Assembly (NCBI GenBank): GCA_965242965.1
Contig: OZ251518.1
Coordinates: 2,169,838-2,233,837 of the forward strand
Length of the DNA: 64,000 bases
Direction: 5' to 3'
Source of the DNA: Candidatus Poribacteria bacterium
GTDB taxonomy: Bacteria; Poribacteria; WGA-4E; WGA-3G
A program made the position numbers and the translations under genes. This document shows, one piece after another, positions 3,812-62,467 of the stretch. The notes beneath the pieces are model-generated. The model ran no database searches. It saw only the letters and a program-made list of their open reading frames with translations, and had not been told where the DNA came from. Position 1 is the first letter of the stretch. The number at the start of each line of letters is the position of its first letter.

Positions 3812-4200
3812 ATGTGAGAGTGTTTCATAAATCGTCCAACGTCGCGGTGATAGGCCCCGCGATGCGGTGAAAAAAACGCCTCACCTTCACGTAGGGCGAG
3901 GGCCCTCGGATGCCACACGCGCATGCGAGAGGGTTCCCCTCGCCATCATCCGCGCAATCTAACGATCTCGGGGGACAGGCCCCCGCGCTACGGTGAAAAA
4001 ACGCCACCCCTTCACGTAGGGCGAGGGCCTGTCCCTCGCCATCGTTTTGGTGTCAGAACGCATCACCCCTGTAGTTCAGGATCGCCTGATCCTGACCCGT
4101 TCGGGAGCGGGCGCTCCCGAACTACAGAGGTGGGCCCGATGCCTGCCGGTATGCGCCTGCCCTCCAAGGCGGGATAAATACCGAAACGGATTTATGAAAC
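3812..4200. mobile_element. composite MITE-like element with ~19-bp terminal inverted repeats GAG(G/C)GTGTTTCATAAATC and nested palindromic modules
   Basis: Left end gagagtgtttcataaatcg (3814..3832); right end ggatttatgaaacacgctc (4182..4200). Inside are family-A hairpins (GGCGAGGGCCTGTCCCTCGCC, GGGGGACAGGCCCCC), the family-D dumbbell (CCTGTAGTTCAGGATCGCCTGATCCTGACCCGTTCGGGAGCGGGCGCTCCCGAACTACAGAGG) and a conserved GGTGGGCCCGATG...CCAAGGCGGGATAAATACCGAAACGGATTTATGAAACAC arm. Other copies lie at 20259..20690 and 26678..26945; single ends at 6783..6800, 28293..28312, 30856..30878 and 45775..45793. Confidence 0.7.
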
Positions 4201-4314: not shown

Positions 4315-5354
4315 GTGAAAGCGGCACAATTCTATGGCGGAAAAGACATCAGGGTAGAAACCGTCCCAGACCCGAGTCCTCAAGAAGGAGAGGTGCTCGT
4401 GCAAGTGGAAGCGGCGGGTATCTGTGGCAGTGACCTGCACGGATATCACCATTCGCCGGAAAATCCCTTGGCCCCTCGCATCGGCGGGCACGAACTAATG
4501 GGCGAAATTCTCGATACCGGCAAAGGCACAAGCGACTCTCCCTCGCATATCAAACGAGGCAGTCGAGTTGCGATTGAACCGATTGTCCCGTGTAACTTCT
4601 GCCCGGAATGCCTCAACGGTTACTATAACATCTGCGCCAAACTGCGGCATGGCGGTGGCGGGTTTGCGGAATTCATGGTTGCCCCTGTCTCCAATGCGTA
4701 TGCGTTGCCGGCTAGCGTTTCAGTTGAGGGCGGTGCGCTGGCAGAGGTTTACGCCGTCGCCGTTCACGCTGTCAACCGCGCGATGGTTTCACCGGGGAAC
4801 GGGTTGCGATTATTGGCAGCGGTCCAGTCGGACTGACAATTGCGCAAGTGGCAGATGTTGCCGGTGCTACTTCTATCGCCATGTTAGGGAAGCCGGATGA
4901 GCCCCTCCAAATCGCCCACGAAGCGGTAGGTGCCGTGTCTATCAACGTCGATAAAACGGATGCCGTTGCGGCGATTCAGGAGTGGAGCGATGGCAGGGGT
5001 GCCGATGTCGTTTTTGAGGCAGTCGGCGGCACGGCAAATACGCTTGAACAGGCGACCGAGGTAGCCGCGAAACGGGGTAGAGTCTGTATGGTAGGAGGGC
5101 ATCGCACACCGCTTACGTTTTCGGAACGGTTCGCGCGGAGCAGAGAGCTTACTGTCATCTGGTCCTTCTGTTATGGCAGGCGCGGCGGGAAGACAGAGTT
5201 CCAAATCGCCATCGATTTACTCGCCGCTGGGAAACTCGATCCGAGTCCGTTGGTAACGCATCGGTTTGCTCTTGATGATATTAGTGAAGCGTTCGCTGTT
5301 GCTGCTGGCCGAGATGCGCACGGTTCTGTCAAAGTGCTTGTTTTTCCTAACTAG
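4315..5354 (+). pseudogene. zinc-dependent alcohol dehydrogenase (MDR family, sorbitol/threonine dehydrogenase-like) interrupted by a 1-nt frameshift
   Basis: Two adjacent ORFs (4315..4836 and 4848..5354) together cover an MDR dehydrogenase. The first carries GICGSDLHGYHH and CNFCPECLNGYYNIC (structural Zn site). Hand translation of the other frame at ~4805 gives VAIIGSGPVGLTIAQVADVAGA (GxGxxG NAD site), which continues into the second ORF. The frame switches near ccggggaacggg (4790..4805). A promoter (TTGAAA 4251..4256, 17-nt spacer, TATAGT 4274..4279) and GGAGG before the GTG start are present. Confidence 0.75.
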
Positions 5355-5633
5355 ACAAGCACACGCCACAGCCGCGGCGATCGCGGGGGACAGGCCCCCG
5401 CGCTACGGTAACCGAGAACGGTTCCTTTCACCGTAGGGCGAGGGCCTGTCCCTCGCCGTGCTATCGGGCACACGTGCGCTCAGCACCTCTGTAGGGCAGG
5501 ATCGCCTGATCCTGCCCGTTCGGGATCAGGCGATCCCGAACTACAGTCGCTCTTAGGTCCTACGGACCTGAAGAGATGTTTTTCACGGGTGTGATCGCGG
5601 GGGACAGGCCCCCGCGCTACGGTAACCGAGACA

Positions 5634-6284
5634 ATGGAGTTCAAAAACATGGAATCACTTAATCTACTCGTTTTTGTTGGAACGGAAGGCATCTACCACG
5701 AACATGCCGGCAACGGGCAATTCCTAACGAAGATGCTCAATGCCTCCGACGATATTACTGCCACCTTTTCGCAAGACTACGATGTGCTTGCAGATGGACT
5801 CGGCGCGTATCACGTCGCGCTTTTCTACACCGATGTCGGGGAACTGACAGCGGCGCAAGAGACAGGGTTGCTGCGCTTTATCAAATCAGGCGGCGGCTTT
5901 TTCGGATTACACACAGCGGCTGCATCCTTCCGAGAATCTGAGGGATACCACGGGATGCTCAATGGGTTTTTCAACGGACATAGTCCTTACATGGACTTCA
6001 CCGTCACCGTGAGCGACACGGCGCATCCGATTACAGAAGGGCTATCCGACTTTGATGTCACCGATGAGCTCTACTATCTGAAGCATGATGCGAGTGCATC
6101 GCATCATCTTATGCATGCGTATGACGAGACGAAGGATGAAACGCATGTCATGGCGTTCCATCACCTGTATGGCGAGGGGAGAGTCTTCTACTTCGCGCTG
6201 GGGCACGATCTGGCTGTGCTTGAGAATCGGAGTTTTCAGGCAGTCATTCGCCGGGGTGTGTTGTGGGCTGGCAGACGTATTTAG
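5634..6284 (+). CDS. ThuA-domain protein (class-I glutamine amidotransferase-like fold)
   Basis: GGGFFGLHTAAASF and GEGRVFYFALGH motifs typical of the ThuA family; 216 aa. Confidence 0.7.
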   Translation: MEFKNMESLNLLVFVGTEGIYHEHAGNGQFLTKMLNASDDITATFSQDYDVLADGLGAYHVALFYTDVGELTAAQETGLLRFIKSGGGFFGLHTAAASFRESEGYHGMLNGFFNGHSPYMDFTVTVSDTAHPITEGLSDFDVTDELYYLKHDASASHHLMHAYDETKDETHVMAFHHLYGEGRVFYFALGHDLAVLENRSFQAVIRRGVLWAGRRI

Positions 6285-6810
6285 CAAGAGGGGAACAGGA
6301 TTTGCAGGATTAGCAGGATTAGCAAGAGAGGAGCAGGATTTGCAGGATTGACAAGATTAGCAAGAGGGGTCCGTAGCGCGGGGGCCTGTCCCCCGCGATC
6401 GCCCGCGTGCCCCCAGAGACTGTAGTTCGGGATCGCCTGATCCCGAACGGCGCATGGCGAGGAGAATCCTTTCCTGGCCCGTAGCGCGGGGGCCTGTCCC
6501 CCGCGATCGTTCGATCCGCGCGAAAAACGAACGCCGACAAAGGCCGTTTCCCTCCCGATCGAGGCACGGCGAGGGACAGGCCCTCGCCCTACGGTGAAAC
6601 GGAGACGGCCTTGCATACCGTAGCGCGGGGGCCTGTCCCCCGCGATCGTTCGATCCGCGCGAAAAACGCACGCCGACAAAATCCGTTTCCCTCCCGACCG
6701 AGGCATGGCGAGGGACAGGCCCTCGCCCTACGTGAAGAGAGGCGTTTTTTTAACCGTAGCGCGGGGGACAGGCCCCCGCGAACGATTTATGAAACCCCTT
6801 CATTTAAATG
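6285..6810. repeat. intergenic repeat block: family-F 9-bp tandem repeats, then two ~140-bp tandem composite family-A units
   Basis: 6290..6355 reads GCAGGATTAGCAGGATTAGCAAGAG.. GCAGGATTTGCAGGATTGACAAGATTAGCAAGAG. 6470..6610 and 6610..6750 are near-identical: ACCGTAGCGCGGGGGCCTGTCCCCCGCGATCGTTCGATCCGCGCGAAAAACG..GGCGAGGGACAGGCCCTCGCCCTACG. Confidence 0.8.
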
Positions 6811-15639: not shown

Positions 15640-16130
15640 GCCTTTTATTTTTAAGTGAAAGGGAGGCGTTTTTTACCGTAGCGCAAGGGAGAGAGCAGAC
15701 CTGTCCCACGCGAGTGTCCGGGGCCGCGGACGATGGCGAGGGACAGGCCCTCGCCCTACGGTGAGACGGCCCCCTCTGTAGGTCAAGATCGCCAGATCTT
15801 GACCCGTTCGGGATCGGGCGATCCCGAACTACGGTCTACGTTGAAGGGGTGGCGTTTTTAACCGTAGCGCGGGGGCCTGTCCCCCGCGATCGCTGCATGG
15901 CGAGGGACAGGCCCTCGCCCTACGGTGAAGGGGGGAGTTCTTTTCGCGTGCTAGATGGCGAGGGACAGACCCTCGCCCTACGGTGAAGGGGGACCTTCTG
16001 CCGCCGCTGCCCCGGGAGGCGCGCCGCCCTATTGCATCGAGACCAGGAGGTCTCTCCTACCGGGAAAACGGCATCGTTCGGAATCTCACGAAACCATTTT
16101 GACAACAACGAGTTAAGAAACACCCTCATT
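15640..16130. repeat. intergenic repeat block (families A, B, D)
   Basis: Three GGCGAGGGACAG(G/A)CCCTCGCCCTACGGTGA units, one family-D dumbbell (15775..15835) and one family-B unit (16030..16060). Confidence 0.75.
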
Positions 16131-17414: not shown

Positions 17415-17700
17415 GTTCTCCTTCTTTTTGTTTCGATCGGGCGATCAAAACCTATTTTGAGATTTTGTTTCGATCAGGCGATCGAAACCTATTTTGAGAT
17501 AAAGATATAATAGCGTATTCCGTGAATTTTGTCAAGACTTGAGCAGGATTTACAAGATTAGGCAAGATTTTCAAGAGGACATTTCACACCGCACCCAACC
17601 TATCAGAACTGCCACAAGCAGCGGGGGCAGGGGATGCCCCCCTCATCCTGCAAAATCTTGTAAATCTTGTAAATCTTGCAAATCCTGCTCCGATTTCATT
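17415..17700. repeat. tandem 39-bp hairpin repeats, then a family-F inverted pair
   Basis: 17431..17509 is TTTGTTTCGATC(G/A)GGCGATC(A/G)AAACCTATTTTGAGAT x2. 17545..17580 and 17650..17695 are inverted 9-bp-repeat arms (CAGGATTTACAAGATTAGGCAAGATT / AATCTTGTAAATCTTGTAAATCTTGCAAATCCTG) flanking a GGGGGCAGGGGATGCCCCC hairpin. Confidence 0.75.
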
Positions 17701-26661: not shown

Positions 26662-26965
26662 TAGCAACAAGTTATAGGAGGGTGTTTCATAAATCGCTCA
26701 ACGTCGCGGTGCCAGACCCCGCGCTACGGTGAAAAAACGCCTCCCTTTCACGTAGGGCGAGGGCCTGTCCCTCGCCACGCGTTTGGCTGGTAGACCGCCT
26801 CACCCCTGTAGATCAGGATCGCCTGATCCTGATCCGTTCGGGATCGGGCGATCCCGAACTACAAAGGTGGGCCCGATGTCTTCTGGTATTCGCCCTCCCT
26901 CCAAGGCGGGATAAATGCCGAAACGGAGTTATGAAACTCCCTCAAATAAATAGGAGAAAATCGAA

Positions 26966-36609: not shown

Positions 36610-37002
36610 GATGCCGATTATCCTTTTATGTTTTCCTAGTGAACGCTGGCGGGGGGCAGGCCCCCGCGCTACGATAAAAAACGGCACTTCATCGTAGGGT
36701 TTGGGCCCTCGGATGCCACACGCGCATCCGAGCGGGTTCCCCTCGCCAGCGTCCACGCACCAGGCCCTGTAGGTCAGGATCGCCTGATCCTGACCTGTTT
36801 GTGATCAGGCGATCACAAACTACAGAGGGGAAACACACATCGGGACGATGGAGATCGCGGGCGAAACCCGCTCGGATGCGCGTATGGCATCCGAGGGCCC
36901 CCGCGCTACGGTAATCGAGAAATCGCGGGGGACAGGCCCCCGCGCTACGGGAACATCAAGCCCCGAGGTCTCTCCTACCGGGATGTATCAAGACCTGCGC
37001 GC

Positions 37003-45360: not shown

Positions 45361-45914
45361 AGTAACCTCCTCATAGCGCGCAATCGCGGCACGCCTATGG
45401 GGTTTGCAGGCATTGTCTTAAGCAACACCTGCTGGGTTTTCACATCCACCTCTTTCATATTTGCAACAGACTCTCAAGGATACGAGAGAACCCGCTGTGC
45501 AAATCGGGAGGTGTGTCGTTTGAATAATGCGTTGCGCCAAATTGCAACACTTTGGACGCTTTTATTCGCGCCATTAATATTTTACCACAAAAATGTTGCA
45601 ATTGCAAGTAAACTTTTCATGATGGACGCAAATGCAAATTCTCCGCCGATAGACAGCGTTTCAACTTGTTCAGCATCCATTCTATTTTTATATCATAAAT
45701 TTCATTGCATTGTCAAGAAAAATCTTAAAAAATATGGTTATCAACCTCAAGGTTGGATTTCACGTCTAATTATTAAGAGTGTTTCATAAGTCCATTTCGG
45801 CATTTATCCCGCCTTGGAGAGCAGGCGAATATCAGAAGGCATCGGGCCCACCTCTGTAGTTCGGGAACGCCCGCTCCCGAACGGGTCAGGATCTGGCGAT
45901 CCTCACCTACAGGG

Positions 45915-47021
45915 GTGATGCAGTCTGCTATTAAGGCTTTAGGGAGGAAAAAACGCAAATTGCAAGAATTTATTCAACGGGAGAGATGGCAGCGGCTGCT
46001 CAACCCCATCGCGGCGCACTTCCAGACATCCCCAAACGCGATTCAGATTGAGGCAATCCAGCACGGGACTCGGCTGAGAGAGAACGTCTGCCGCCTCATC
46101 ATCGGCAAGGAAAGTTACTTGCTAAAACAGCATGACGTGACCGCACCGGCTGTTGAAGCGGGACATACGCCTATCCAGATTGAGGCTACCGTGTTATCCA
46201 CGTTGCACCGAAGTGGCTGCCGCGTTCCCAAGGTGATTTGGAAATCCGAACCCTTGCATGCGTTGCTATTGGCATGGTGCGGCGAGAACACGTTGGATTC
46301 CATTGCGCAACGTCATCGGGATGCGCATGCCCCAGCGGTTGTCTGGCGTGTGCTAAAAGAATTGTGTCAGATGGAGACACGTTTTGTGGAAAACGCCGAA
46401 TTTCTCAAACCTTACGTATTCGGTTTTGATAGCCGTGCGACTTTGGAACGCTTGTTGGAACAAGGGAAAAGGACGCTCGGTTATCTGCTAACTTCCGCTG
46501 ACCACAATGTCCAAAACGCGTGGCACGCGCTTTCTGTCCGCTTATTGGATGCCCCAACGACCTTAGGCACGCTGGACTACAATGCCCGTAACGTTGTCCT
46601 CGCCGGCGCGGAACCGACGTTTATTGATTTCGGGAGCATCGGTTGGGATTGGCAGGAGAGGCGGCTCGTGCAACTCTTCAATAGTATCGGTGCCTTCACA
46701 GAAGGCGCGAATTTTGTCTCACTGCTAGACAAAGAGCTGGTTCACCATTACGCGACGTGGGTTGCGACGCACCGAGAAACCTGTTCGCCTTCGGACATCG
46801 CGGCGCGGGTAGATGCACATCATCTGTTGCTTTACTTGTCGGTGGTGCATCGGCTTTTGCGAGTGGTAGTGCGTCCTGAAACGGTGGACAGTCAGATGCT
46901 TCTGCATGCTTGGGGAGATGCGCGTGCCAGATTTCAACGCGCACTCACGTTGATTGCCACCGCCGATTTAAGCGATGATGGTGACATCGGCCGAATTCGG
47001 GACATGATTCGCCAGAGATGA
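45915..47021 (+). CDS. phosphotransferase-family protein (APH/choline-kinase-like protein kinase fold)
   Basis: LGTLDYNARNVVLAGAEPTFIDFGSIGWDWQERRL resembles the APH catalytic-loop/DFG-like region (D.N..N...FID). Confidence 0.55.
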   Translation: MMQSAIKALGRKKRKLQEFIQRERWQRLLNPIAAHFQTSPNAIQIEAIQHGTRLRENVCRLIIGKESYLLKQHDVTAPAVEAGHTPIQIEATVLSTLHRSGCRVPKVIWKSEPLHALLLAWCGENTLDSIAQRHRDAHAPAVVWRVLKELCQMETRFVENAEFLKPYVFGFDSRATLERLLEQGKRTLGYLLTSADHNVQNAWHALSVRLLDAPTTLGTLDYNARNVVLAGAEPTFIDFGSIGWDWQERRLVQLFNSIGAFTEGANFVSLLDKELVHHYATWVATHRETCSPSDIAARVDAHHLLLYLSVVHRLLRVVVRPETVDSQMLLHAWGDARARFQRALTLIATADLSDDGDIGRIRDMIRQR

Positions 47022-47577
47022 GCAGGATATGAGCAGGATTTATACAAGATTAGCACGATTAGGAGCAGGATTTACGAGATTTACAGGATTTCACAGGATT
47101 AGGTCTCTGGTGCGCTGGCGCGGTTGTGGACTGCCACGGGGTGTTCGATGCATCAGCATCTATAATCGTGGTAAATCGTGATAATCGTGTAAATCCTGCT
47201 TCAGACGATTGGCATAGCGAGGGACAGGCCCTCGCCCTACGGTGAACGGAAACGGCATTGCAAACCGTAGCGCGGGGGCCTGTCCCCCGCGATCGTTCGA
47301 CCCGCGCGAAAAACACCTCTTCAGAAGCTCTGCAGCGGTTTATCTCTGTAGGACAAGAGCACCTGCTCTGGATCCGTTCGGGAGCGGGTGCTCCCGAACT
47401 ACAGATCCGGGACATGAGCACGATCGCGGGGGACAGGCCCCCGCGCTACGGGCCAGGACGAAAAAAACGCGGGGGACAGGCCCCCGCGCTACGGTACCTA
47501 AACCACCTCTGTAGGGCAAGAGCACCTGCTCTTGCCCATTGCGATCGGGCGATCGCAACCTACAGAGGCGATGAGGA
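47022..47577. repeat. intergenic repeat block: family-F 9-bp repeat arms in inverted arrangement plus family A/D units
   Basis: 47025..47100 carries (GAGCAGGATT, TACAAGATT, AGCACGATT, TTACGAGATT, TACAGGATT, TCACAGGATT); 47160..47195 carries the inverse (AATCGTGATAATCGTGTAAATCCTGC). Family-A and family-D units follow at 47205..47575. Confidence 0.75.
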
Positions 47578-52774: not shown

Positions 52775-52849
52775 ATTTTTTTGTAAAAAAAGTGATATTT
52801 TTTGGATATTCGCGAAAAAATCCTATAAATCCTATAATTTTGTCTATGG

Positions 52850-53760
52850 CGTATCGGGACAAGGATGTCCCTCCTACCCAAACGCATATCGGGACAAGGA
52901 TGTCCCTCCTACCCAAACCCGTAGGAGAGACCTCCCGGTCTCGATGCAACTTTCGGTAGGAGACCGTAGTTCGGGAGCGCCTGATCCCGAACGGCGCATG
53001 GCGAGGAGAACCCCTTCCGGGCCCGTAGCGCGGGGGTCTGTCCCCCGCGATCGCCCGCGTGCCCCAGAGACTGTAGTTCGGGAGCACCTGCTCCCGAACG
53101 GGTCAAGAGCAGGCACTCTTGACCTACAGAGGTGATGCGCGCACGCGTGCCCGAGGGCACGGCGAGGGACAGGCCCTCGCCCTACGGTAAACGGCACGTT
53201 TTTTCACCGTAGCGCGGGGGCCTGTCCCCCGCGATCGCTCGATCTGCGCGAAAAACGCACGCAGACTAAGGGCGTTTTCCCGACCGAGGCATGGCGAGGG
53301 ACAGGCCCTCGCCCTACGGTATGCGTGGCGTTTTTTTCACCGTAGGGCGGGGGCCTGTCCCCCGCGATCGTTCGCGTGCCCCAGAGACCGTAGTTCGGGA
53401 GCACCTGCTCCCGAACGGGTCAAGAGCAGGCGCTCTTGCCCTACAGAGGGGATGCGCGCACGCGGGCCCGACGGCACGGCGAGGGACAGGCCCTCGCCCT
53501 ACGGTGAAAGGAGACGGCCTTGCATACCGTAGCGCGGGGGCCCTCGCCTGCCACACGCGCAGGCGAGCGGGTTTCCCCCGCGATTGCCAGACCCGCGCGA
53601 AAAACGCACGCCAGCCAAAGCCGTTTTCCCGACCGTTGCATGGCGAGGGACAGGCCCTCGCCCTACGGTAAGCGGCACGTTTTTTCACCGTAGCGCGGGG
53701 GCCTGCCCCCCCGCGGTGGATACCGCATCCTCAGATGCTATAATCTTGTAAATCCTATAA
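52850..53760. repeat. ~0.9-kb intergenic block of family A, B, C and D repeat units
   Basis: Multiple ACCGTAGCGCGGGGGCCTGTCCCCCGCGATCG and GGCGAGGGACAGGCCCTCGCCCTACGGT units, two family-D dumbbells (53060..53140, 53385..53450), family C at 52855..52915 and family F at 53735..53790. Confidence 0.8.
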
Positions 53761-53838
53761 TCTTGCAAATCCTGATTCAGACAATTGGGCGCACGGAGGA
53801 CAGGCGGAGATACAAATCCATCTTTCCCGACAATACGC

Positions 53839-54762: not shown

Positions 54763-55247
54763 CTCCCGCCTCGCGAGGGCCTGTCCCTCGCGAACGTGAC
54801 ATGCTCAATACCGTAGCGCGAGGGCCTGTCCCTCGCGATCGCTAGTTTTTTGTAGTTCGGGAGCGCCTGCTCCCGAACGGGTCAGGATCAGGCGATCCTG
54901 ACCTACAGAGGTGAGGAGGTCTGACGGCCAAACGCATGGCGAGGGACAGGTTTTCCCACCGCCCTACGTGAAGGGATGGCGTTTTTTTCACCGTAGCGCG
55001 AGGGCCTGTCCCTCGCGATCGTTAGTTCTTTGTAGTTCGGGAGCGCCTGCTCCCGAACGGGTCAGGATCGTTTGGCAAATATGCCAGAACTTCAGACGAT
55101 CCTGCCCTACAGGGGTGAGGCGGTCTGCCAGCAAAACGCATGGCGAGGGACAGGCCCCCGCCCTACGTGAAGGGGTGACGTTTTTTACCGTAGCGCGAGG
55201 GCCTGTCCCTCGCGATCGTGAACTGATAAACAATAAGGAGAAATCCA

Positions 55248-56462: not shown

Positions 56463-56733
56463 AGGGGCATTACCGTAACCGAGGCCTGGCGAGGGACAGG
56501 CCCTCGCCCTACGCGGAGGAGCGGCACTATCCCTTACCGTAGCGCGGGGGCCTGTCCCCCGCGGTGCTACGATGGACCCAGCCCCCTCTGTAGTTCGGGA
56601 TCGCCCGATCCCGAACGGGGCAGGATCAGGCGATCCTGCCCTACAGAGGGGATGCGGTCTGCCAGCCAAACGCCCGGCGAGGGACAGGCCCTCGCCCTAC
56701 GGATTGAAGAAGCACTGCCCCGCGAAACTTCCC

Positions 56734-56795: not shown

Positions 56796-57974
56796 ATGAC
56801 AATATGCCACGGACTCCCGCGCGCCATTCCCGAAGAAGTAGGAATGTCAGCAGCGCGGTTAAAACGCATCGCCCCGGTGATGCAACGCCACATCGACGAA
56901 GGAACCATCTCCGGCGCGTTAACCATGATAGCGCGCGAAGGAAAACTCGTCCATTTTGAGAAACTCGGCATGCGCGACATCGCCGCAGCGAAACCGATGG
57001 AATTTGATACCATCTTCCGCATCTATTCCATGACGAAGCCGATTACCAGCGTCGCCGTGATGATGCTTTACGAAGAAGGGCATTTCCAACTGAACGCGCC
57101 GATATCCGAATTCATTCCCGCCTTCAAAGACATGAAGGTTTACAGCGAAGATCAGACGGAAATTGTCGATGCTGAGCCCGAGATGACGATAAAGCATCTG
57201 CTCACGCATACCGCCGGGCTCATCTACGGCGGTGATAGTGGTAGCCCGATTGATCTGGCGTATCAAGACGCGAATTTCTTCGATGCAACGCTTGAATCAA
57301 TGGCGCAGAGACTGGGAGCCATTCCGCTGCTGCACCACCCCGGTGCGGCATGGACTTACGGCATGTCCACCGATGTGCTAGGATACCTTGTGGAAGTCGT
57401 GTCCGGGATGCCGTTTGAAACCTTCTTGCAGACGCGCATTTTCGAGCCGATGGGAATGGTAGACACCGGCTTCTCTGTGCCAGAAGAAAACGCAGACCGG
57501 TATGCCACACTCTATGAACAAACTGAAAACGGCGGCATTCAGGTGGTAGAGCAAGCACCGGTTTCAACGGGTCCGCTGAGTTTCCCGCCATCAGGTGGTG
57601 GAGGACTTCAGTCAACCGCCGCCGATTACCTGCGCTTCTGCCAGATGTTGCTCAACAACGGCGAACTTGACGGCGAACGCCTCCTCGGTTCAAAGACGGT
57701 GGAGCTCATGCGGATAAATCATGTTGACGATGCTTGGCAGCCGTTGGAGAGAGAGGGGTGCGGTTTCGGGCTTGGGTTCGCGGTCGTCACAGACCTGGCG
57801 GAGACACATGCCCTCGGTTCGGAAGGCACTTTTAGTTGGGGCGGTTTGGCACGGACAACGTTTTGGATCGATCCGGTGGAAGAGCTCATCGCCGTATTCA
57901 TGACGCAGCTCCTCGGCGATGCGCAGTTCCACGCGCAGTTCCGGGTGCTGACGTATCAGGCGATTATTGATTAA
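56796..57974 (+). CDS. serine hydrolase, beta-lactamase-like, paralog (~60% identity) of 55248..56462
   Basis: FRIYSMTKPITSVAVMMLYEEG (SxxK) and HLLTHTAGL. Confidence 0.8.
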   Translation: MTICHGLPRAIPEEVGMSAARLKRIAPVMQRHIDEGTISGALTMIAREGKLVHFEKLGMRDIAAAKPMEFDTIFRIYSMTKPITSVAVMMLYEEGHFQLNAPISEFIPAFKDMKVYSEDQTEIVDAEPEMTIKHLLTHTAGLIYGGDSGSPIDLAYQDANFFDATLESMAQRLGAIPLLHHPGAAWTYGMSTDVLGYLVEVVSGMPFETFLQTRIFEPMGMVDTGFSVPEENADRYATLYEQTENGGIQVVEQAPVSTGPLSFPPSGGGGLQSTAADYLRFCQMLLNNGELDGERLLGSKTVELMRINHVDDAWQPLEREGCGFGLGFAVVTDLAETHALGSEGTFSWGGLARTTFWIDPVEELIAVFMTQLLGDAQFHAQFRVLTYQAIID

Positions 57975-58477
57975 TTGAAAGATCGCGGGGGACAGGCCCC
58001 CGCGCTACGGTGAAGGGGGGTATCCCGCGCGACGTAGGGCGAGGGCCTGTCCCTCGCCATGCCAAGAAGAGAGGGCGATTTTGATTCATTAAACGATCGC
58101 GGGGGACAGGCCCCCGCGCTACGCGGAAGGGATAATGCCTCTTCAATCCGTAGGGCGAGGGCCTGTCCCTCGCCATGCCAAACGGAAAAAAATTGATTCA
58201 TTAAACGATCGCGGGGGACAGGCCCCCGCGCTACGGTAGAAGAACGGTCTCCGCGCATCGTAGGGCGAGGGCCTGTCCCTCGCCATGCCAAACGGAAAGA
58301 GAAATTGATTAATGGAACGATCGCGGGGGACAGGCCCCCGCGCTACGCGGAAGGGATAATGCCTCTTCAATCCGTAGGGCGAGGGCCTGTCCCTCGCCAT
58401 GCCAAACGTACCCCGCGTTACGTAGGGCGAGGGCCTGTCCCTCGCCATGCACAGCATAAGAAAAAAGGAAACTCATC
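57975..58477. repeat. tandem array of four ~115-bp MITE-like hairpin units with variable cores
   Basis: Each unit is GATCGCGGGGGACAGGCCCCCGCGCTACG, then a 22-25 bp core, then CGTAGGGCGAGGGCCTGTCCCTCGCCATGCCAA(ACGGAAA..ATTGATTCATTAAAC). The cores of units 2 and 4 are identical (CGGAAGGGATAATGCCTCTTCAATC); the cores of units 1 and 3 differ. Confidence 0.8.
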
Positions 58478-59095
58478 ATGCACATCGCAGTTGTCACCGG
58501 CGAACACGGATTCCAAGAGAAACAGTTCGACGCGGTTTTTGAGAGCATGGACGGTGTCCAATTCGTTCGCGAAGATTTAGATGTCTTTGTCGATGACCCG
58601 GGCCAGAAGGACTACGACACCGTCGTCTTTTACAATTTTCATCGTCCCTACCCGACAGAAGCACAGGCGGATGCCATCCTCGGCTTGACAGAACGCGGGC
58701 AAGGCATCGTCATTCTGCATCACGCCATCCTCGCGTTTCCGGAATGGGATGTCTATTCCGATATGTGCGGAATTGCCGACAGAGGTTTCGGATACCATCC
58801 GCGGCAGACGCTTGATGTGCATGTCGCTGACACAACGCATCCCATCACCGCGGGGATGACGGACTGGGAGATGGGCGACGAGACTTACACGATGGATTCG
58901 GCAGGCGACGATAGCGATATCCTGCTGACAGTGACGCATCCGAATAGCATGGAGGTGCTCGGCTGGGCGCGAGAATACGGCAACTCCCGTATTTTTTGTC
59001 TCCAAAGCGGCCACGACGATGTCACCTTCTCCAATCCGAACTTCCGCGAAGTGCTCAAACGCGGCATTCAGTGGGCAGGCAGGGATAAGCAATGA
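58478..59095 (+). CDS. ThuA-domain protein
   Basis: GIVILHHAILAF and NSRIFCLQSGHD are ThuA-family motifs. It is translationally coupled (ATGA overlap) to the downstream epimerase. Confidence 0.65.
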   Translation: MHIAVVTGEHGFQEKQFDAVFESMDGVQFVREDLDVFVDDPGQKDYDTVVFYNFHRPYPTEAQADAILGLTERGQGIVILHHAILAFPEWDVYSDMCGIADRGFGYHPRQTLDVHVADTTHPITAGMTDWEMGDETYTMDSAGDDSDILLTVTHPNSMEVLGWAREYGNSRIFCLQSGHDDVTFSNPNFREVLKRGIQWAGRDKQ

Positions 59096-60162
59096 AGCCA
59101 ATGAAGCATCTGTTAGGTTTACGCCTCCTCTTCGCAACGCTTATTGCACTCGCCCCGGTAGGCGGGATTTGTAACCCCGCGCCTGTCGCCAATACAGAGG
59201 AAACTATGGAGCACACAATGTATTCAGTCAGCGACAAAATCGTCGATGGGTTTCACGTTTACGCCTTACAGCAGGACGAAACCACCGTCGCCGAAATCGT
59301 CCCCGCGCTCGGAAATAACTGCTACGCCTTCCGAGTTGCCGGGCGCGTCTTAATAGATGAACCGCCCGATCTGGCGACGTTGCAAGAACGTCCCACCGCC
59401 TACGGAAACCCTATATTGTTTCCGTTTCCAAACCGCATCCGCGATGGCAGCTGGACGTTTGAAGGCGAAACCTATCAGTTTGACAAACCGCCCGATGCAC
59501 CGACGACTATCCACGGGTTGTTGCTCAACCGTCCCTATCATGTCCAACGTCACGCAGCAGACGAAAACGGCGCGACGCTTGTCTGCACGCTCAATTCGCA
59601 CGATGTGCCAGATATTGGCAGACAGTATCCGTTTCCGTTTCACATTGAGATAACGTATACCCTCAAAGATTCCGTGTTGACGATGGGCGTTTCTATCAAA
59701 AACACCGGCAAAGGGAACATGCCGATGGGGTTCGGCATCCACCCCTATTTTCGCGTCGCGAATCCATCGCAAGCGAAAATCACCGTGCCCGCCGCGAAAT
59801 ACTGGGAACTTGACGATGTGCTAGTCCCCACAGGAAAACAACTTCCTGTCGCCGGAGCCTTGGATTTGCGGGATGGAAAGCCGTTCGTCGGATTAAAGTT
59901 GGACCACGTTTTCACAGACGTGCAATTGACAGACGGTGTAAGCCGATGCATCATCGGGAATGAATTGGTGATGGAATCGGATGCCATCTTCAGAGAACTC
60001 GTCGTCTATACACCACCGGGAAGGGATGCCATCTGTTTTGAACCGTATACCTGCCCGACAGACGCGATTAATTTGGAGGCGAAAGGCATTCCTGCTGGTA
60101 TCATTGTGCTGTCACCGGAAGAAACTTTCGCCGCTACCGTTCGGATTCTGCGCGTTCGGTAG
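59092..60162 (+). CDS. aldose 1-epimerase family protein (galactose mutarotase-like), secreted
   Basis: Signal peptide. YGNPILFPFPNRI and GFGIHPYF are conserved in the aldose epimerase superfamily. Confidence 0.75.
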   Translation: MKPMKHLLGLRLLFATLIALAPVGGICNPAPVANTEETMEHTMYSVSDKIVDGFHVYALQQDETTVAEIVPALGNNCYAFRVAGRVLIDEPPDLATLQERPTAYGNPILFPFPNRIRDGSWTFEGETYQFDKPPDAPTTIHGLLLNRPYHVQRHAADENGATLVCTLNSHDVPDIGRQYPFPFHIEITYTLKDSVLTMGVSIKNTGKGNMPMGFGIHPYFRVANPSQAKITVPAAKYWELDDVLVPTGKQLPVAGALDLRDGKPFVGLKLDHVFTDVQLTDGVSRCIIGNELVMESDAIFRELVVYTPPGRDAICFEPYTCPTDAINLEAKGIPAGIIVLSPEETFAATVRILRVR

Positions 60163-60790
60163 GAGAGCCCTCCTGGTTTTGATTTTTCAACATATCGGGA
60201 CAAGGATGTCCCTCCTACCCAAAACGATGTTCCCCGTAGGAGAGACCTCCTGGTCTCGATGCATTCCCGTAGGAGAGACCTCCCGGTCTCGATGTTCCCG
60301 TAGCGCGGGGGCCTGTCCCCCGCGCGCGTTGGGATACGCGAGCAATGGCGAGGGACAGGCCCTCGCCCTACGGTGAGGGGTGGTGTGTTTATCGTAGCGC
60401 GGGGGCCCTCGGATGCCAGACGCGCATCCGAGAGGGTTTCCCCCGCGATCTCATCGTCACGATGTGTGTTTCCGCCTCTGTAGTTTGTGATCGCCTGATC
60501 ACAAACAGGTCAGGATCTGGCGATCCTGACCTACAGAGCCTGGCGCACGCACGCTGGCGAGGGACAGGCCCTCGTCCTACGGTGAAGGGGTGGTGTTTTT
60601 ATCGTAGTAGGAGGGACATCCTTGTCCCGATACGCACAGCAACAAAACGCATCGAGACCCGGAGGTCTCGCCTACTGGGGGCATCGAGACCCGGAGGTCT
60701 CGCCTACTGGGGGCATCGAGACCCGGAGGTCTCGCCTACCGAACGCTGGGTTGACATCCATCGCGGATTTGTGGTATCCTATAAACTATA
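60163..60790. repeat. intergenic repeat block including a 32-bp x3 tandem of family B
   Basis: 60667..60740 is GGGGGCATCGAGACCCGGAGGTCTCGCCTACT x3. Family C (60195..60225), B (60235..60295), A (60300..60420, 60550..60600) and D (60475..60540) are also present. Confidence 0.8.
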
Positions 60791-60808: not shown

Positions 60809-61432
60809 ATGGCATTTAGCGATTTCAAGTCTGTCGATGAAGCCCTAGAAAATTTCAAGATTACCTTCACGTGGGGTGACTTCATCGAAAGCATCAAAAG
60901 CGAAGAGTCAACGCCGCCGGCACATTTGCTGCACGACTTTGAGTTTGCACAAGAGCACATTGATGTTTTCGCCTCCGACTCGGCGCGGTGTCACGCGCTC
61001 ATTTACCCGGTTTTATGGGAGTGCTATAAGGCATACGCTAAGGATTACGCGCTCTGGATTGGCAAGTCTATCACTTACGATGAGATGTTGACAGGCACAC
61101 CGGACTACTTCGTCTCTACGCGCTCAGAGTTTGGTGTTCCTGTTGTTGGGACACCGCTCATTCTGCTTGTTGAAGCCAAGCGGAACGATTTTGTCCTCGG
61201 TTGGGGGCAATGTCTCGCAGAGCTGGTCGCGGCGCAAAAAATCAATGGCGATGCAAGTGAGCCGGTGTATGGCATTGTCAGCGATGGAGAGCAGTGGCAA
61301 TTTGGCCGGCTCGTCGGCGATGTCTTTACCCGCAATAGAACGCGCTATACGTCGGATAGTTTGCCGCGCCTCTTCGGTGCGGTTGAAGCCGTGTTCAGAA
61401 GCGCGACGGGGAATAGCAACGGGAGTGTCTGA
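60809..61432 (+). CDS. PD-(D/E)xK nuclease-fold protein resembling the type I restriction enzyme HsdR N-terminal (HSDR_N) domain
   Basis: PDYFVSTRSEFG...PLILLVEAKRNDF (D...EAK motif), then GWGQCLAELVAAQKI...VYGIVSDGEQWQF, matching the standalone HSDR_N pattern. Confidence 0.5.
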   Translation: MAFSDFKSVDEALENFKITFTWGDFIESIKSEESTPPAHLLHDFEFAQEHIDVFASDSARCHALIYPVLWECYKAYAKDYALWIGKSITYDEMLTGTPDYFVSTRSEFGVPVVGTPLILLVEAKRNDFVLGWGQCLAELVAAQKINGDASEPVYGIVSDGEQWQFGRLVGDVFTRNRTRYTSDSLPRLFGAVEAVFRSATGNSNGSV

Positions 61433-61489
61433 ACCGATTCTGTTTTTCGTTGTGCATCTTGTTCTAGTCAAATGAATTCCGCATAAGCC

Positions 61490-62467
61490 ATGAAAAACAT
61501 CACATTTTTCTTTATTTTCCTCTTACTCATCTACGCGCAACCGTCCTCCGCTATCCGCGAAGGCACGGCGAACGCCGCCATTTTCATCAAGCAGTATGAA
61601 CAGCGCGGCGAGTGGGACAAAGTCGCACTCTGGCACGAAGCCGCAGCGGAATGCCTGATTCGCATCTCTATCCCGATGAACGAGATCGCGCATGCCTATT
61701 ACACACGCCGTGGACACGAGAAATGGGCGGCGCGTGCGAAGAAAGAACGCGCGGAGATTCAGGCGCAACGTCAGTCGCTCATGAACCGTGCGGAGAATGC
61801 ATGGGAAAAATCGGGAGTAATGGCTACCGAGCGGCGGGGACAGGCACGCGCCCTACGGGATGCCAATAGTTTGTCGCGTTTACAAGCAGAACGTGAAAAA
61901 ATCTCTCAATTTATCGCGACGTGGGCACCGCACTATCCCGATAGATTCTACGATTTCGGCATCTATCCGACCTTTTTTAGGGAACAACGCGAGCGCGCGG
62001 CGCAGAAAAAGGATTACGTCAAAGTCCTACAACTTGAGGCAGACGCGGCGGAGATGTGCGCGGCGCAGTATGAAAAAATCCCCCTCGCTCTCGGGTTGAA
62101 ACGTTATGAAAAGGTCCGAGATGCCTATCGTCAGCATGCGATGCTACTCCGCGCGCTCGCAAAGCAAAACCCGAAACTGACAGCCCTTTGCCTCAAAAAT
62201 GTTGCGGAACGCTCCATTAACCCACTGGCTACTGTTTCCAATGGCGCAAAAACAGACGTAATGCTTCAGACTGCCAGATCTGATCAGCGCGTGCAAAAGG
62301 CTCTCGAAAATAAAAATGGCATTCACGAATACGTCTGGTTTCAAGGGTTTGCTTGGACGGTAAGTTTCTATAACCACAGCCAGGGAAATCTCGCCATCGC
62401 CATTATTGATGACAAAACGGGAAAAGTAGTTGACGTGTTGATTCAGGTAGGTTCACCTGAAAATTGA
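61490..62467 (+). CDS. secreted hypothetical protein (signal peptide, Arg/Glu-rich helical middle)
   Basis: MKNITFFFIFLLLIYAQPSSA signal. 325 aa; no recognisable domain. Confidence 0.55.
   Translation: MKNITFFFIFLLLIYAQPSSAIREGTANAAIFIKQYEQRGEWDKVALWHEAAAECLIRISIPMNEIAHAYYTRRGHEKWAARAKKERAEIQAQRQSLMNRAENAWEKSGVMATERRGQARALRDANSLSRLQAEREKISQFIATWAPHYPDRFYDFGIYPTFFREQRERAAQKKDYVKVLQLEADAAEMCAAQYEKIPLALGLKRYEKVRDAYRQHAMLLRALAKQNPKLTALCLKNVAERSINPLATVSNGAKTDVMLQTARSDQRVQKALENKNGIHEYVWFQGFAWTVSFYNHSQGNLAIAIIDDKTGKVVDVLIQVGSPEN

Follow-up and report, generated by a model that had tools for sequence, protein, structure and literature searches.

What kind of element fills the space between a serine hydrolase gene and a ThuA-aldose 1-epimerase gene pair in Candidatus Poribacteria, a sponge symbiont? 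The 64-kb stretch of DNA that we analysed (the window) carries at this site an array of hairpin-forming repeats with conserved arms and variable cores. An initial annotation had compared its layout to that of CRISPR while holding that it was not CRISPR, and had offered two explanations: repeated insertion of a MITE, or structured small RNAs that form a family and vary in their loops. We found that the array is an ordinary REP/BIME/REPIN cluster, one of about 30 in the window. In our judgement it is very probably an ordered cluster of GTAG-tagged REPs, made up of four inverted heterodimers of REP types B and A with one extra type A, that has grown by tandem duplication.

Tandem Repeats Finder (TRF) reports the locus as a single array at 57966-58408, with a period of 114, 3.9 copies and 82% matches; at a period of 224 the matches over the same interval rise to 90%. 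A repeat search of the locus recovered the left arm in four copies and the right arm in five, and all arm-arm inverted pairs in the array have 86% complementarity. These two analyses bear out the original description of tandem units of about 115 bp with near-identical inverted arms, which lie directly upstream of the ThuA-epimerase operon, as had also been reported. The count of four units was correct as far as it went, but a fifth copy of the right arm, following a truncated core, had been overlooked: the full array at 57966-58446 consists of four units of about 112-116 bp and one extra arm (Table 1). The units follow the order a-b-a-b-a, the last being partial; between units 2 and 4 identity reaches 97% over 104 nt, linker included. 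Their cores are identical, as first stated. No further copy of core 1 or of core 3 turns up in the window when up to 3 mismatches are allowed, and in that sense they are unique, yet they are related to each other, matching at 13 of 25 positions and having in common a 3' half, YCCGCGC, that is also present in the truncated fifth unit.

Table 1. Features of the array and of its flanking genes, with positions in the window
Feature	Position	Strand	Evidence or remark
Upstream gene: serine hydrolase, beta-lactamase family	56796..57974	+	Pfam PF00144, E=1.4e-69
Last hydrolase codons ATT GAT TAA, the start of the first repeat unit	57966-57974	+	TRF array starts at 57966
REP type B copy 1 (GTAGCGCGGGGGCCTGTCCCCCGCG)	57984..58008	-	Exact match; alone forms 8-bp stem and 5-nt loop, GTAG unpaired
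Spacer a1 (core 1), 25 nt, between facing GTAG ends	58009..58033	+	Unique in window
REP type A copy 1 (GTAGGGCGAGGGCCTGTCCCTCGCC)	58034..58058	+	Exact match; local DNA hairpin of -10.5 kcal/mol
Linker 1	58059..58097	+	Copies hydrolase 3' end: GGCGATT-TTGATTCATTAAACGAT against the gene's GGCGATTATTGATTAATTGAAAGAT
REP type B copy 2	58098..58122	-	Motif match
Spacer b (core 2), 27 nt	58123..58149	+	Same as core 4; related to spacer of REP pair 56488-56563
REP type A copy 2	58150..58174	+	Motif match
Linker 2 (…ATTGATTCATTAAACGAT), copy of gene end	58175..58209	+	15/18 identical to gene-end sequence
REP type B copy 3	58210..58234	-	Motif match
Spacer a2 (core 3), 25 nt	58235..58259	+	13/25 positions as in core 1
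REP type A copy 3	58260..58284	+	Motif match
Linker 3 (…ATTGATTAATGGAACGAT), copy of gene end	58285..58321	+	16/18 identical to gene-end sequence
REP type B copy 4	58322..58346	-	Motif match
Spacer b (core 4)	58347..58373	+	Identical to core 2
REP type A copy 4	58374..58398	+	Motif match
Truncated fifth unit: linker start (ATGCCAAACG) joined to 3' half of a-type spacer (TACCCCGCGTTAC); B arm deleted	58399..58421	+	
REP type A copy 5 (extra arm)	58422..58446	+	Local hairpin within 139-nt fold
Leader, 31 nt, with purine-rich ribosome-binding site AAGGAAA (58465-58471), before ThuA start codon	58447..58477	+	
ThuA gene	58478-59095	+	Pfam PF06283, 5.5e-31
Aldose 1-epimerase gene, 4-nt overlap with ThuA	59092-60162	+	Pfam PF01263, 3e-37

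Open reading frames of 91-106 aa cross the array at 57971-58291 and 58143-58457 on the minus strand and at 58305-58580 on the plus strand, and consist of repeat sequence. Because unit lengths of 112-116 nt break the reading frame and the number of units varies in relatives, these frames are almost certainly spurious; they are liable to be mis-annotated as genes and are best ignored.

The identity of the array is to be read from its arms. Each arm begins with GTAG, directly followed by a palindrome whose 8-bp stem is perfect and whose loop is 5 nt long. Type A, GTAG-GGCGAGGG-CCTGT-CCCTCGCC, is present in the array in five copies on the plus strand and type B, GTAG-CGCGGGGG-CCTGT-CCCCCGCG, in four copies on the minus strand. 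Both have the features by which REPs are recognised. They are short stem-loop palindromes in the range of 20-50 nt, folding as DNA with -10.5 kcal/mol (A) and -11.8 kcal/mol (B); the GTAG at their 5' end is unpaired, and is invariant in all 35 distinct A/B variants and in all of the families that we found; and their stems show compensatory changes, with 23 cells altered on both sides compared with 10.6 in shuffles. Types A and B differ at four positions, and these make up two compensated base pairs inside the local hairpin (CG/GC at columns 5-25 and AU/GC at columns 9-21). Across the 35 distinct variants, drawn from the window and its close relatives, the covariation score was 0.205 as against 0.121 in shuffles, with none of 500 shuffles reaching the observed value, and sliding the 3' partners abolished the A/B covariation signal. 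When the same four differences are placed in the long stem that joins one arm to the other, they yield three mismatches and one G-U. Since the differences between A and B are compensated within the small hairpin and not across the long one, the conserved structure is the small hairpin, and this is the signature of a REP.

In its minimum free energy (MFE) fold each single-stranded unit nevertheless adopts the long hairpin: as RNA at -54 to -59 kcal/mol, with z about -6, and as DNA at -29 to -33 kcal/mol. The stem has 23 pairs, includes one G-U and is interrupted by two 1x1 mismatches. The folds agree with the proposal in the initial annotation that the arms pair into a long imperfect stem with a single G-T position and present the core as a loop. 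What that proposal missed was the palindrome within each arm and the presence of the same arms at other loci. As the inter-arm hairpin is thermodynamically more stable than the two local hairpins, it stays a plausible conformation for single-stranded molecules.

Arms of both types, and B/A dimers as well, are dispersed throughout the window and reach almost all of its intergenic regions; when up to 3 mismatches are allowed, type A is matched 40 times and type B 32 times, where chance predicts 0. When we searched more generally for any GTAG followed by a hairpin, we obtained 141 elements, compared with 7.75 in shuffles, belonging to at least five families. Together they occupy 5.5% of the bases at about 2.2 per kb, and are grouped in 30 clusters that span 10.4% of the window. 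They are extragenic: those that seem to lie inside open reading frames are either in short spurious frames made of REP sequence or are chance matches. The elements thus have the high copy number and the dispersed, extragenic distribution of REPs, within the window and the loci syntenic with it. The array between the hydrolase and ThuA genes, with nine REPs in 463 bp, is the third-largest cluster in the window.

Fourteen facing dimers of A/B type are present in the window, all with their GTAG ends inward and with spacers of 23-27 nt; 13 are B/A heterodimers and one is an A/A dimer. Their spacers are loosely related, typically of the form GGT…ACC, and some sub-types are common to several loci. 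The variable core of the array is therefore the spacer of a REP pair. The near-exclusive use of heterodimers (13 of 14 pairs) means that the long palindrome stays imperfect.

At least five families of GTAG-REP coexist in the window, among them A, B, C, D and E. Family C has the form GAGAGACC-TCCC-GGTCTC, family D the form GAGGGACA-TCCT-TGTCCC, and family E the form TTCGGGATCG-CCT-GATCCCGAAC with many compensatory variants. The two largest clusters of the window, at 52855-53715 (16 REPs) and 60196-60739 (12 REPs), are of mixed families, with a C-type REP repeated perfectly in tandem in the latter (32 nt x 2.8, at 60649-60739). Family E also forms dimers that stand back to back, their GTAG ends pointing outward and their partners only 1-2 nt apart (4071-4125, 5491-5544, 15778-15832, 26808-26862, 36769-36823, 45856-45910, 53073-53127, 53390-53444, 54852-54906, 56590-56644 and 60480-60534); the partners usually differ in stem sequence, each being internally compensated (for example GGGATC/GATCCC, AAGAGC/GCTCTT, GTGATC/GATCAC). 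A second, unrelated class of intergenic repeat, of about 150-180 bp, has a GC-rich centre and two inverted arrays of 9-mers as its arms (GCAGGATTW / CAAGATTAG … AAATCTTGT / AAATCCTGC). It was seen in the window at 17545-17690, 47018-47200, 6281-6366, 52818-52837 and 53738-53773 and in one close relative (L059) at about 15780-15900, and may be either a MITE whose terminal repeats are iterated or a series of sites bound by proteins.

How did several REP pairs come to lie side by side at this one site? The linkers are informative here. The first B arm is preceded by the hydrolase gene end, ATT GAT TAA, and the 9 nt that follow it, and the 18 nt before the B arm in each of units 2-4 match this sequence at 14-16 of 18 positions; in unit 2 the match reaches deeper into the hydrolase, as far as GGCGATT. 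The other copies of B in the window are not accompanied by this sequence, and more distant Poribacteria have the same gene end with no REP next to it, so the linker sequence is derived from the gene and is not part of the element. Tandem copies of a REP pair that include flanking sequence are characteristic of BIMEs and of ordered REPIN clusters, and are what we observe here in the periods of 114 and 224, the gene-end linkers and the one to five copies seen among relatives; so too is the inverted REP pair that has a variable spacer and folds as one hairpin. Gene-derived linkers, the a-b-a-b-a order and the range of one to five copies in relatives all point to local tandem duplication and not to repeated insertion. 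The array grew as a block of hydrolase gene end, B, spacer and A was duplicated in tandem and, later, a two-unit block of 224 bp was duplicated in its turn; a deletion in the last unit completes the pattern. The a and b spacers differ by more than duplication and drift predict. Exchange of spacers with other REP pairs is a possible reason, as is the founding of the array by two insertions before the 224-bp duplication.

The initial annotation was right in looking to mobile DNA, since REPINs count as non-autonomous mobile elements. Iterative insertion, however, with four or five independent insertions of MITE-like REP pairs at one hotspot and each bringing its own core, is improbable. Pairs with differing spacers are indeed dispersed over the window as though the pair were a mobile unit; spacer b resembles that of the pair at 56488-56563, only 1.5 kb upstream; and in two of the relatives, L001 and L059, another REP family has clearly inserted inside A copies of the array, which shows that REPs already in place can receive insertions. 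Independent insertions do not account for the copy of the last hydrolase codons and 3' flank in every unit, a sequence that is absent from REP pairs elsewhere, nor for the strict alternation of a and b with units 2 and 4 at 97% identity through the linker, nor for relatives that have 1, 2, 2 and 4-5 copies of the same unit structure.

These relatives were assembled in two ways. Through the ThuA protein we obtained 52 orthologous Poribacteria loci, at 78-91% identity (an exact-sequence look-up of the window's own ThuA protein returned no record), and through the protein cluster of the hydrolase we obtained further close relatives, whose hydrolases are 93-95% identical to that of the window. The A and B REPs are confined to the clade of the window, consisting of L001 (AGPOR5), which is the closest of the ThuA orthologues, and L055-L061; with up to 2 mismatches allowed, the remaining 50 Poribacteria loci contain no more than a single match each. 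REP density follows the same division, at 1.75-3.3 per kb in relatives within the clade as against 0.05-0.9 per kb at other Poribacteria loci. The spacer between hydrolase and ThuA genes is 503 bp in the window, with four B/A dimers and one extra A, and ranges in its relatives from 191 bp with one B/A dimer (L061), through 353 bp with two (L055), 437 bp with two in which another REP family is inserted into the A copies (L059) and 659 bp with four to five (L001), to 1057 bp in a rearranged form (L056). In L055, L059 and L001 the linkers carry a copy of each genome's own gene end. Neither the number nor the sequence of the cores is kept in relatives with a hydrolase 93-95% identical to that of the window, and the more distant Poribacteria have no A/B array at this site (one, L002, has other repeats there and another, L003, has none). 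A comparison of array length across related genomes had been suggested with the first description of the locus, and its outcome is a variation from one to about five dimers, with distant relatives lacking the A/B array altogether. This variation identifies the array as a fast-evolving region that expands and contracts, and the REP families as lineage-specific.

Some further elements were seen in the relatives. Two to three copies of another REP family, GTAG-GCGCGGTTT-GAAACCGCGCC, which is self-complementary and is read on both strands, separate the gene end from the first B/A dimer in the AGPOR5-like relatives (L001 at 5167-5235, and L055, L059 and L061 within the first 90 nt or so past the hydrolase stop codon); the family is absent from this position in the window. 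IS605-type elements with TnpB only (OrfB_IS605 and a Cas12f1-like TNB domain, 330-379 aa) occupy differing positions in close relatives (L059 14314-15892, L060, and L061 15531-16670), with none in the corresponding window interval 61432-61490, and that of L059 is a precise insertion of about 1.58 kb relative to L061. We considered whether the ends of these elements might be REP-like hairpins and set the idea aside, as GTAG REPs were not obvious there. A scan of JGI metagenomes for exact REP A returned one contig with one copy (L054, Ga0068855_100049472), in which the exact 25-nt sequence stands alone at 1524-1548 in 5 kb of DNA that is otherwise without REP enrichment.

The REPs that carry GTAG are thought to be mobilised by RAYTs, the REP-associated tyrosine transposases of the HUH/Y1 type, acting on single-stranded hairpins. 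By analogy, the original B/A dimer would have been placed beside the hydrolase gene by a RAYT acting on single-stranded DNA hairpins, and we infer such a seeding from the form of the REPs. A search with phmmer, using E. coli RayT (from NC_000913), and with a motif regex over six-frame and stop-to-stop open reading frames detected no RAYT-like frame either in the window or among related loci that total about 1.3 Mb (L001-L052, L054-L061); RAYTs are usually present as a single copy per genome. Once several identical REPs lay side by side, copies would be gained and lost through unequal recombination or replication slippage between them, a route that we infer from the unit structure and its variation. 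The REP arms would stay identical while the spacers drift, through selection for recognition by the transposase, gene conversion, or both.

Only 9 nt lie between the hydrolase stop codon and the array, and 31 nt separate its far end from the start codon of ThuA. Within 57800-58600 we found neither a sigma-70-like promoter nor an intrinsic terminator; the REPs are followed by ATGCC or ATCGTT and not by the runs of T that an intrinsic terminator has, and no room is left for a promoter between the last REP and ThuA. With the flanking genes so close and neither type of signal between them, the array is probably transcribed along with its neighbours, as an intercistronic or 3'-UTR segment. Intercistronic REPs and BIMEs in E. 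coli protect the upstream mRNA from 3'-5' exonucleases and bring about attenuation. Stable hairpins in the array would similarly shield the upstream mRNA from such exonucleases and would partly attenuate read-through, so that the array may, at a lower level of confidence, serve as a stabiliser of the mRNA 3' end and as a partial attenuator; otherwise it may be close to neutral selfish DNA.

The initial annotation had also suggested small RNAs with variable loops; these would be hairpins of about 90 nt that present the loops to their targets. We regard this as very unlikely. Each unit is a very stable long hairpin with the core at its apex, its single G-T position would be a G-U wobble in RNA, and the array lies between co-directional genes and is probably transcribed. 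However, a search of the window for targets of the three cores, at up to 3 mismatches, returned only the cores themselves, with no complementary or identical site elsewhere; there is no match to Rfam 15 at the gathering threshold anywhere in the window; and there is no promoter- or terminator-like site. The differences between A and B are compensated in each small arm and leave three mismatches and one G-U in the long stem. The same architecture is present in about 30 intergenic regions with at least five arm families, as REPs would show, and the cores, which are the spacers of dispersed REP pairs, are not conserved in close relatives. A CRISPR-like or other spacer-acquiring immune array is scarcely credible, as the initial annotation had already recognised: the repeats do alternate regularly with variable segments of about 25 nt, but they are of two types in inverted orientation where CRISPR has a direct repeat in a single orientation with unique spacers, one spacer is duplicated, the linkers are derived from the neighbouring gene, further copies of these repeats lie all over the window, some alone and some paired, no Cas protein is encoded by the seven nearby open reading frames scanned, and a scan of viral contigs with a degenerate A/B pattern gave 0 matches. 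Integron attC sites, in which a variable centre is likewise flanked by imperfect inverted arms, were rejected on inspection; there are no cassette open reading frames between the units, and the arms are dispersed GTAG REPs.

Our findings indicate that the array should be annotated as a repeat region of the REP/BIME type and not as a new RNA or immune system. A literature search found no paper that links GTAG REPs or REP pairs with Poribacteria, and both appear to be unreported so far for this phylum, as do RAYTs. The density of REPs in the window is unusually high. It is conceivable, and we put it forward only tentatively, that the clade made up of the window, AGPOR5 and related genomes from sponge metagenomes harbours a REP/REPIN population that ranks among the densest and most diverse known, with at least five coexisting GTAG-REP families at about 2 per kb that account for more than 5% of the DNA and occupy most intergenic regions, in arrays that grow and shrink from strain to strain. 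Should this density extend over the whole genome, extrapolation gives more than 10,000 REPs, and such a population, if real, would be a new natural system for the study of REPIN-RAYT population dynamics in an uncultured obligate symbiont. Because copy number varies among close Poribacteria, the arrays are potential strain markers and are likely break points in short-read assemblies of sponge metagenomes.

The B/A layout with facing GTAG ends corresponds to what has been named differently in other bacteria: it is the 'TT' dimer of Di Nocera et al. 2013, in which GTAG lies inside the dimer, the BIME of E. coli and the REPIN of Bertels and Rainey. In a BIME a REP is joined through a variable linker to a second REP in inverted orientation, and such pairs often follow one another directly in tandem (Corneloup et al., PMC8266576). 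An ordered REPIN cluster repeats the REPIN in tandem along with flanking sequence, and the largest in Pseudomonas fluorescens SBW25 has four REPINs and one extra REP (Bertels & Rainey 2011, PMC3116915). As in the ordered clusters of SBW25, inverted REPs here form a hairpin together with a less conserved spacer, and the doublet is dispersed extragenically. The host, a member of the Poribacteria, differs, as do the REP sequences, the spacer of 25-27 nt and the consistent use of a heterodimer of two types, and the RAYT is putative. The resemblance to the tandem BIME-2 arrays of E. coli lies in the two REP types in alternating orientation, in linkers that alternate between the head side and the tail side, in tandem amplification, and in an intergenic or intercistronic position near an upstream stop codon. 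In E. coli the stem of the REP is bulged and imperfect, a property that TnpA(REP) activity requires, and the linkers carry defined motifs, whereas the REPs described here have perfect 8-bp stems and a 5-nt loop. Binding to gyrase, IHF and Pol I has been described for the BIMEs of E. coli. The roles of E. coli BIMEs that are treated in the literature cited in PMC3733652 include mRNA stability, attenuation and the binding of gyrase. Group 3 REPs are short perfect palindromes that come immediately after GTAG, and the REP(Sm) of Stenotrophomonas maltophilia, a member of that group, is a perfect palindrome of 16 nt with a 3-nt interruption and with GTAG directly before it (PMC8266576). The REPs of the Poribacteria array resemble REP(Sm) in being short perfect palindromes after GTAG, with several families per genome and a very high copy number, and differ from it in their 5-nt loop (CCTGT), in their unrelated stem sequences and in belonging to another phylum.
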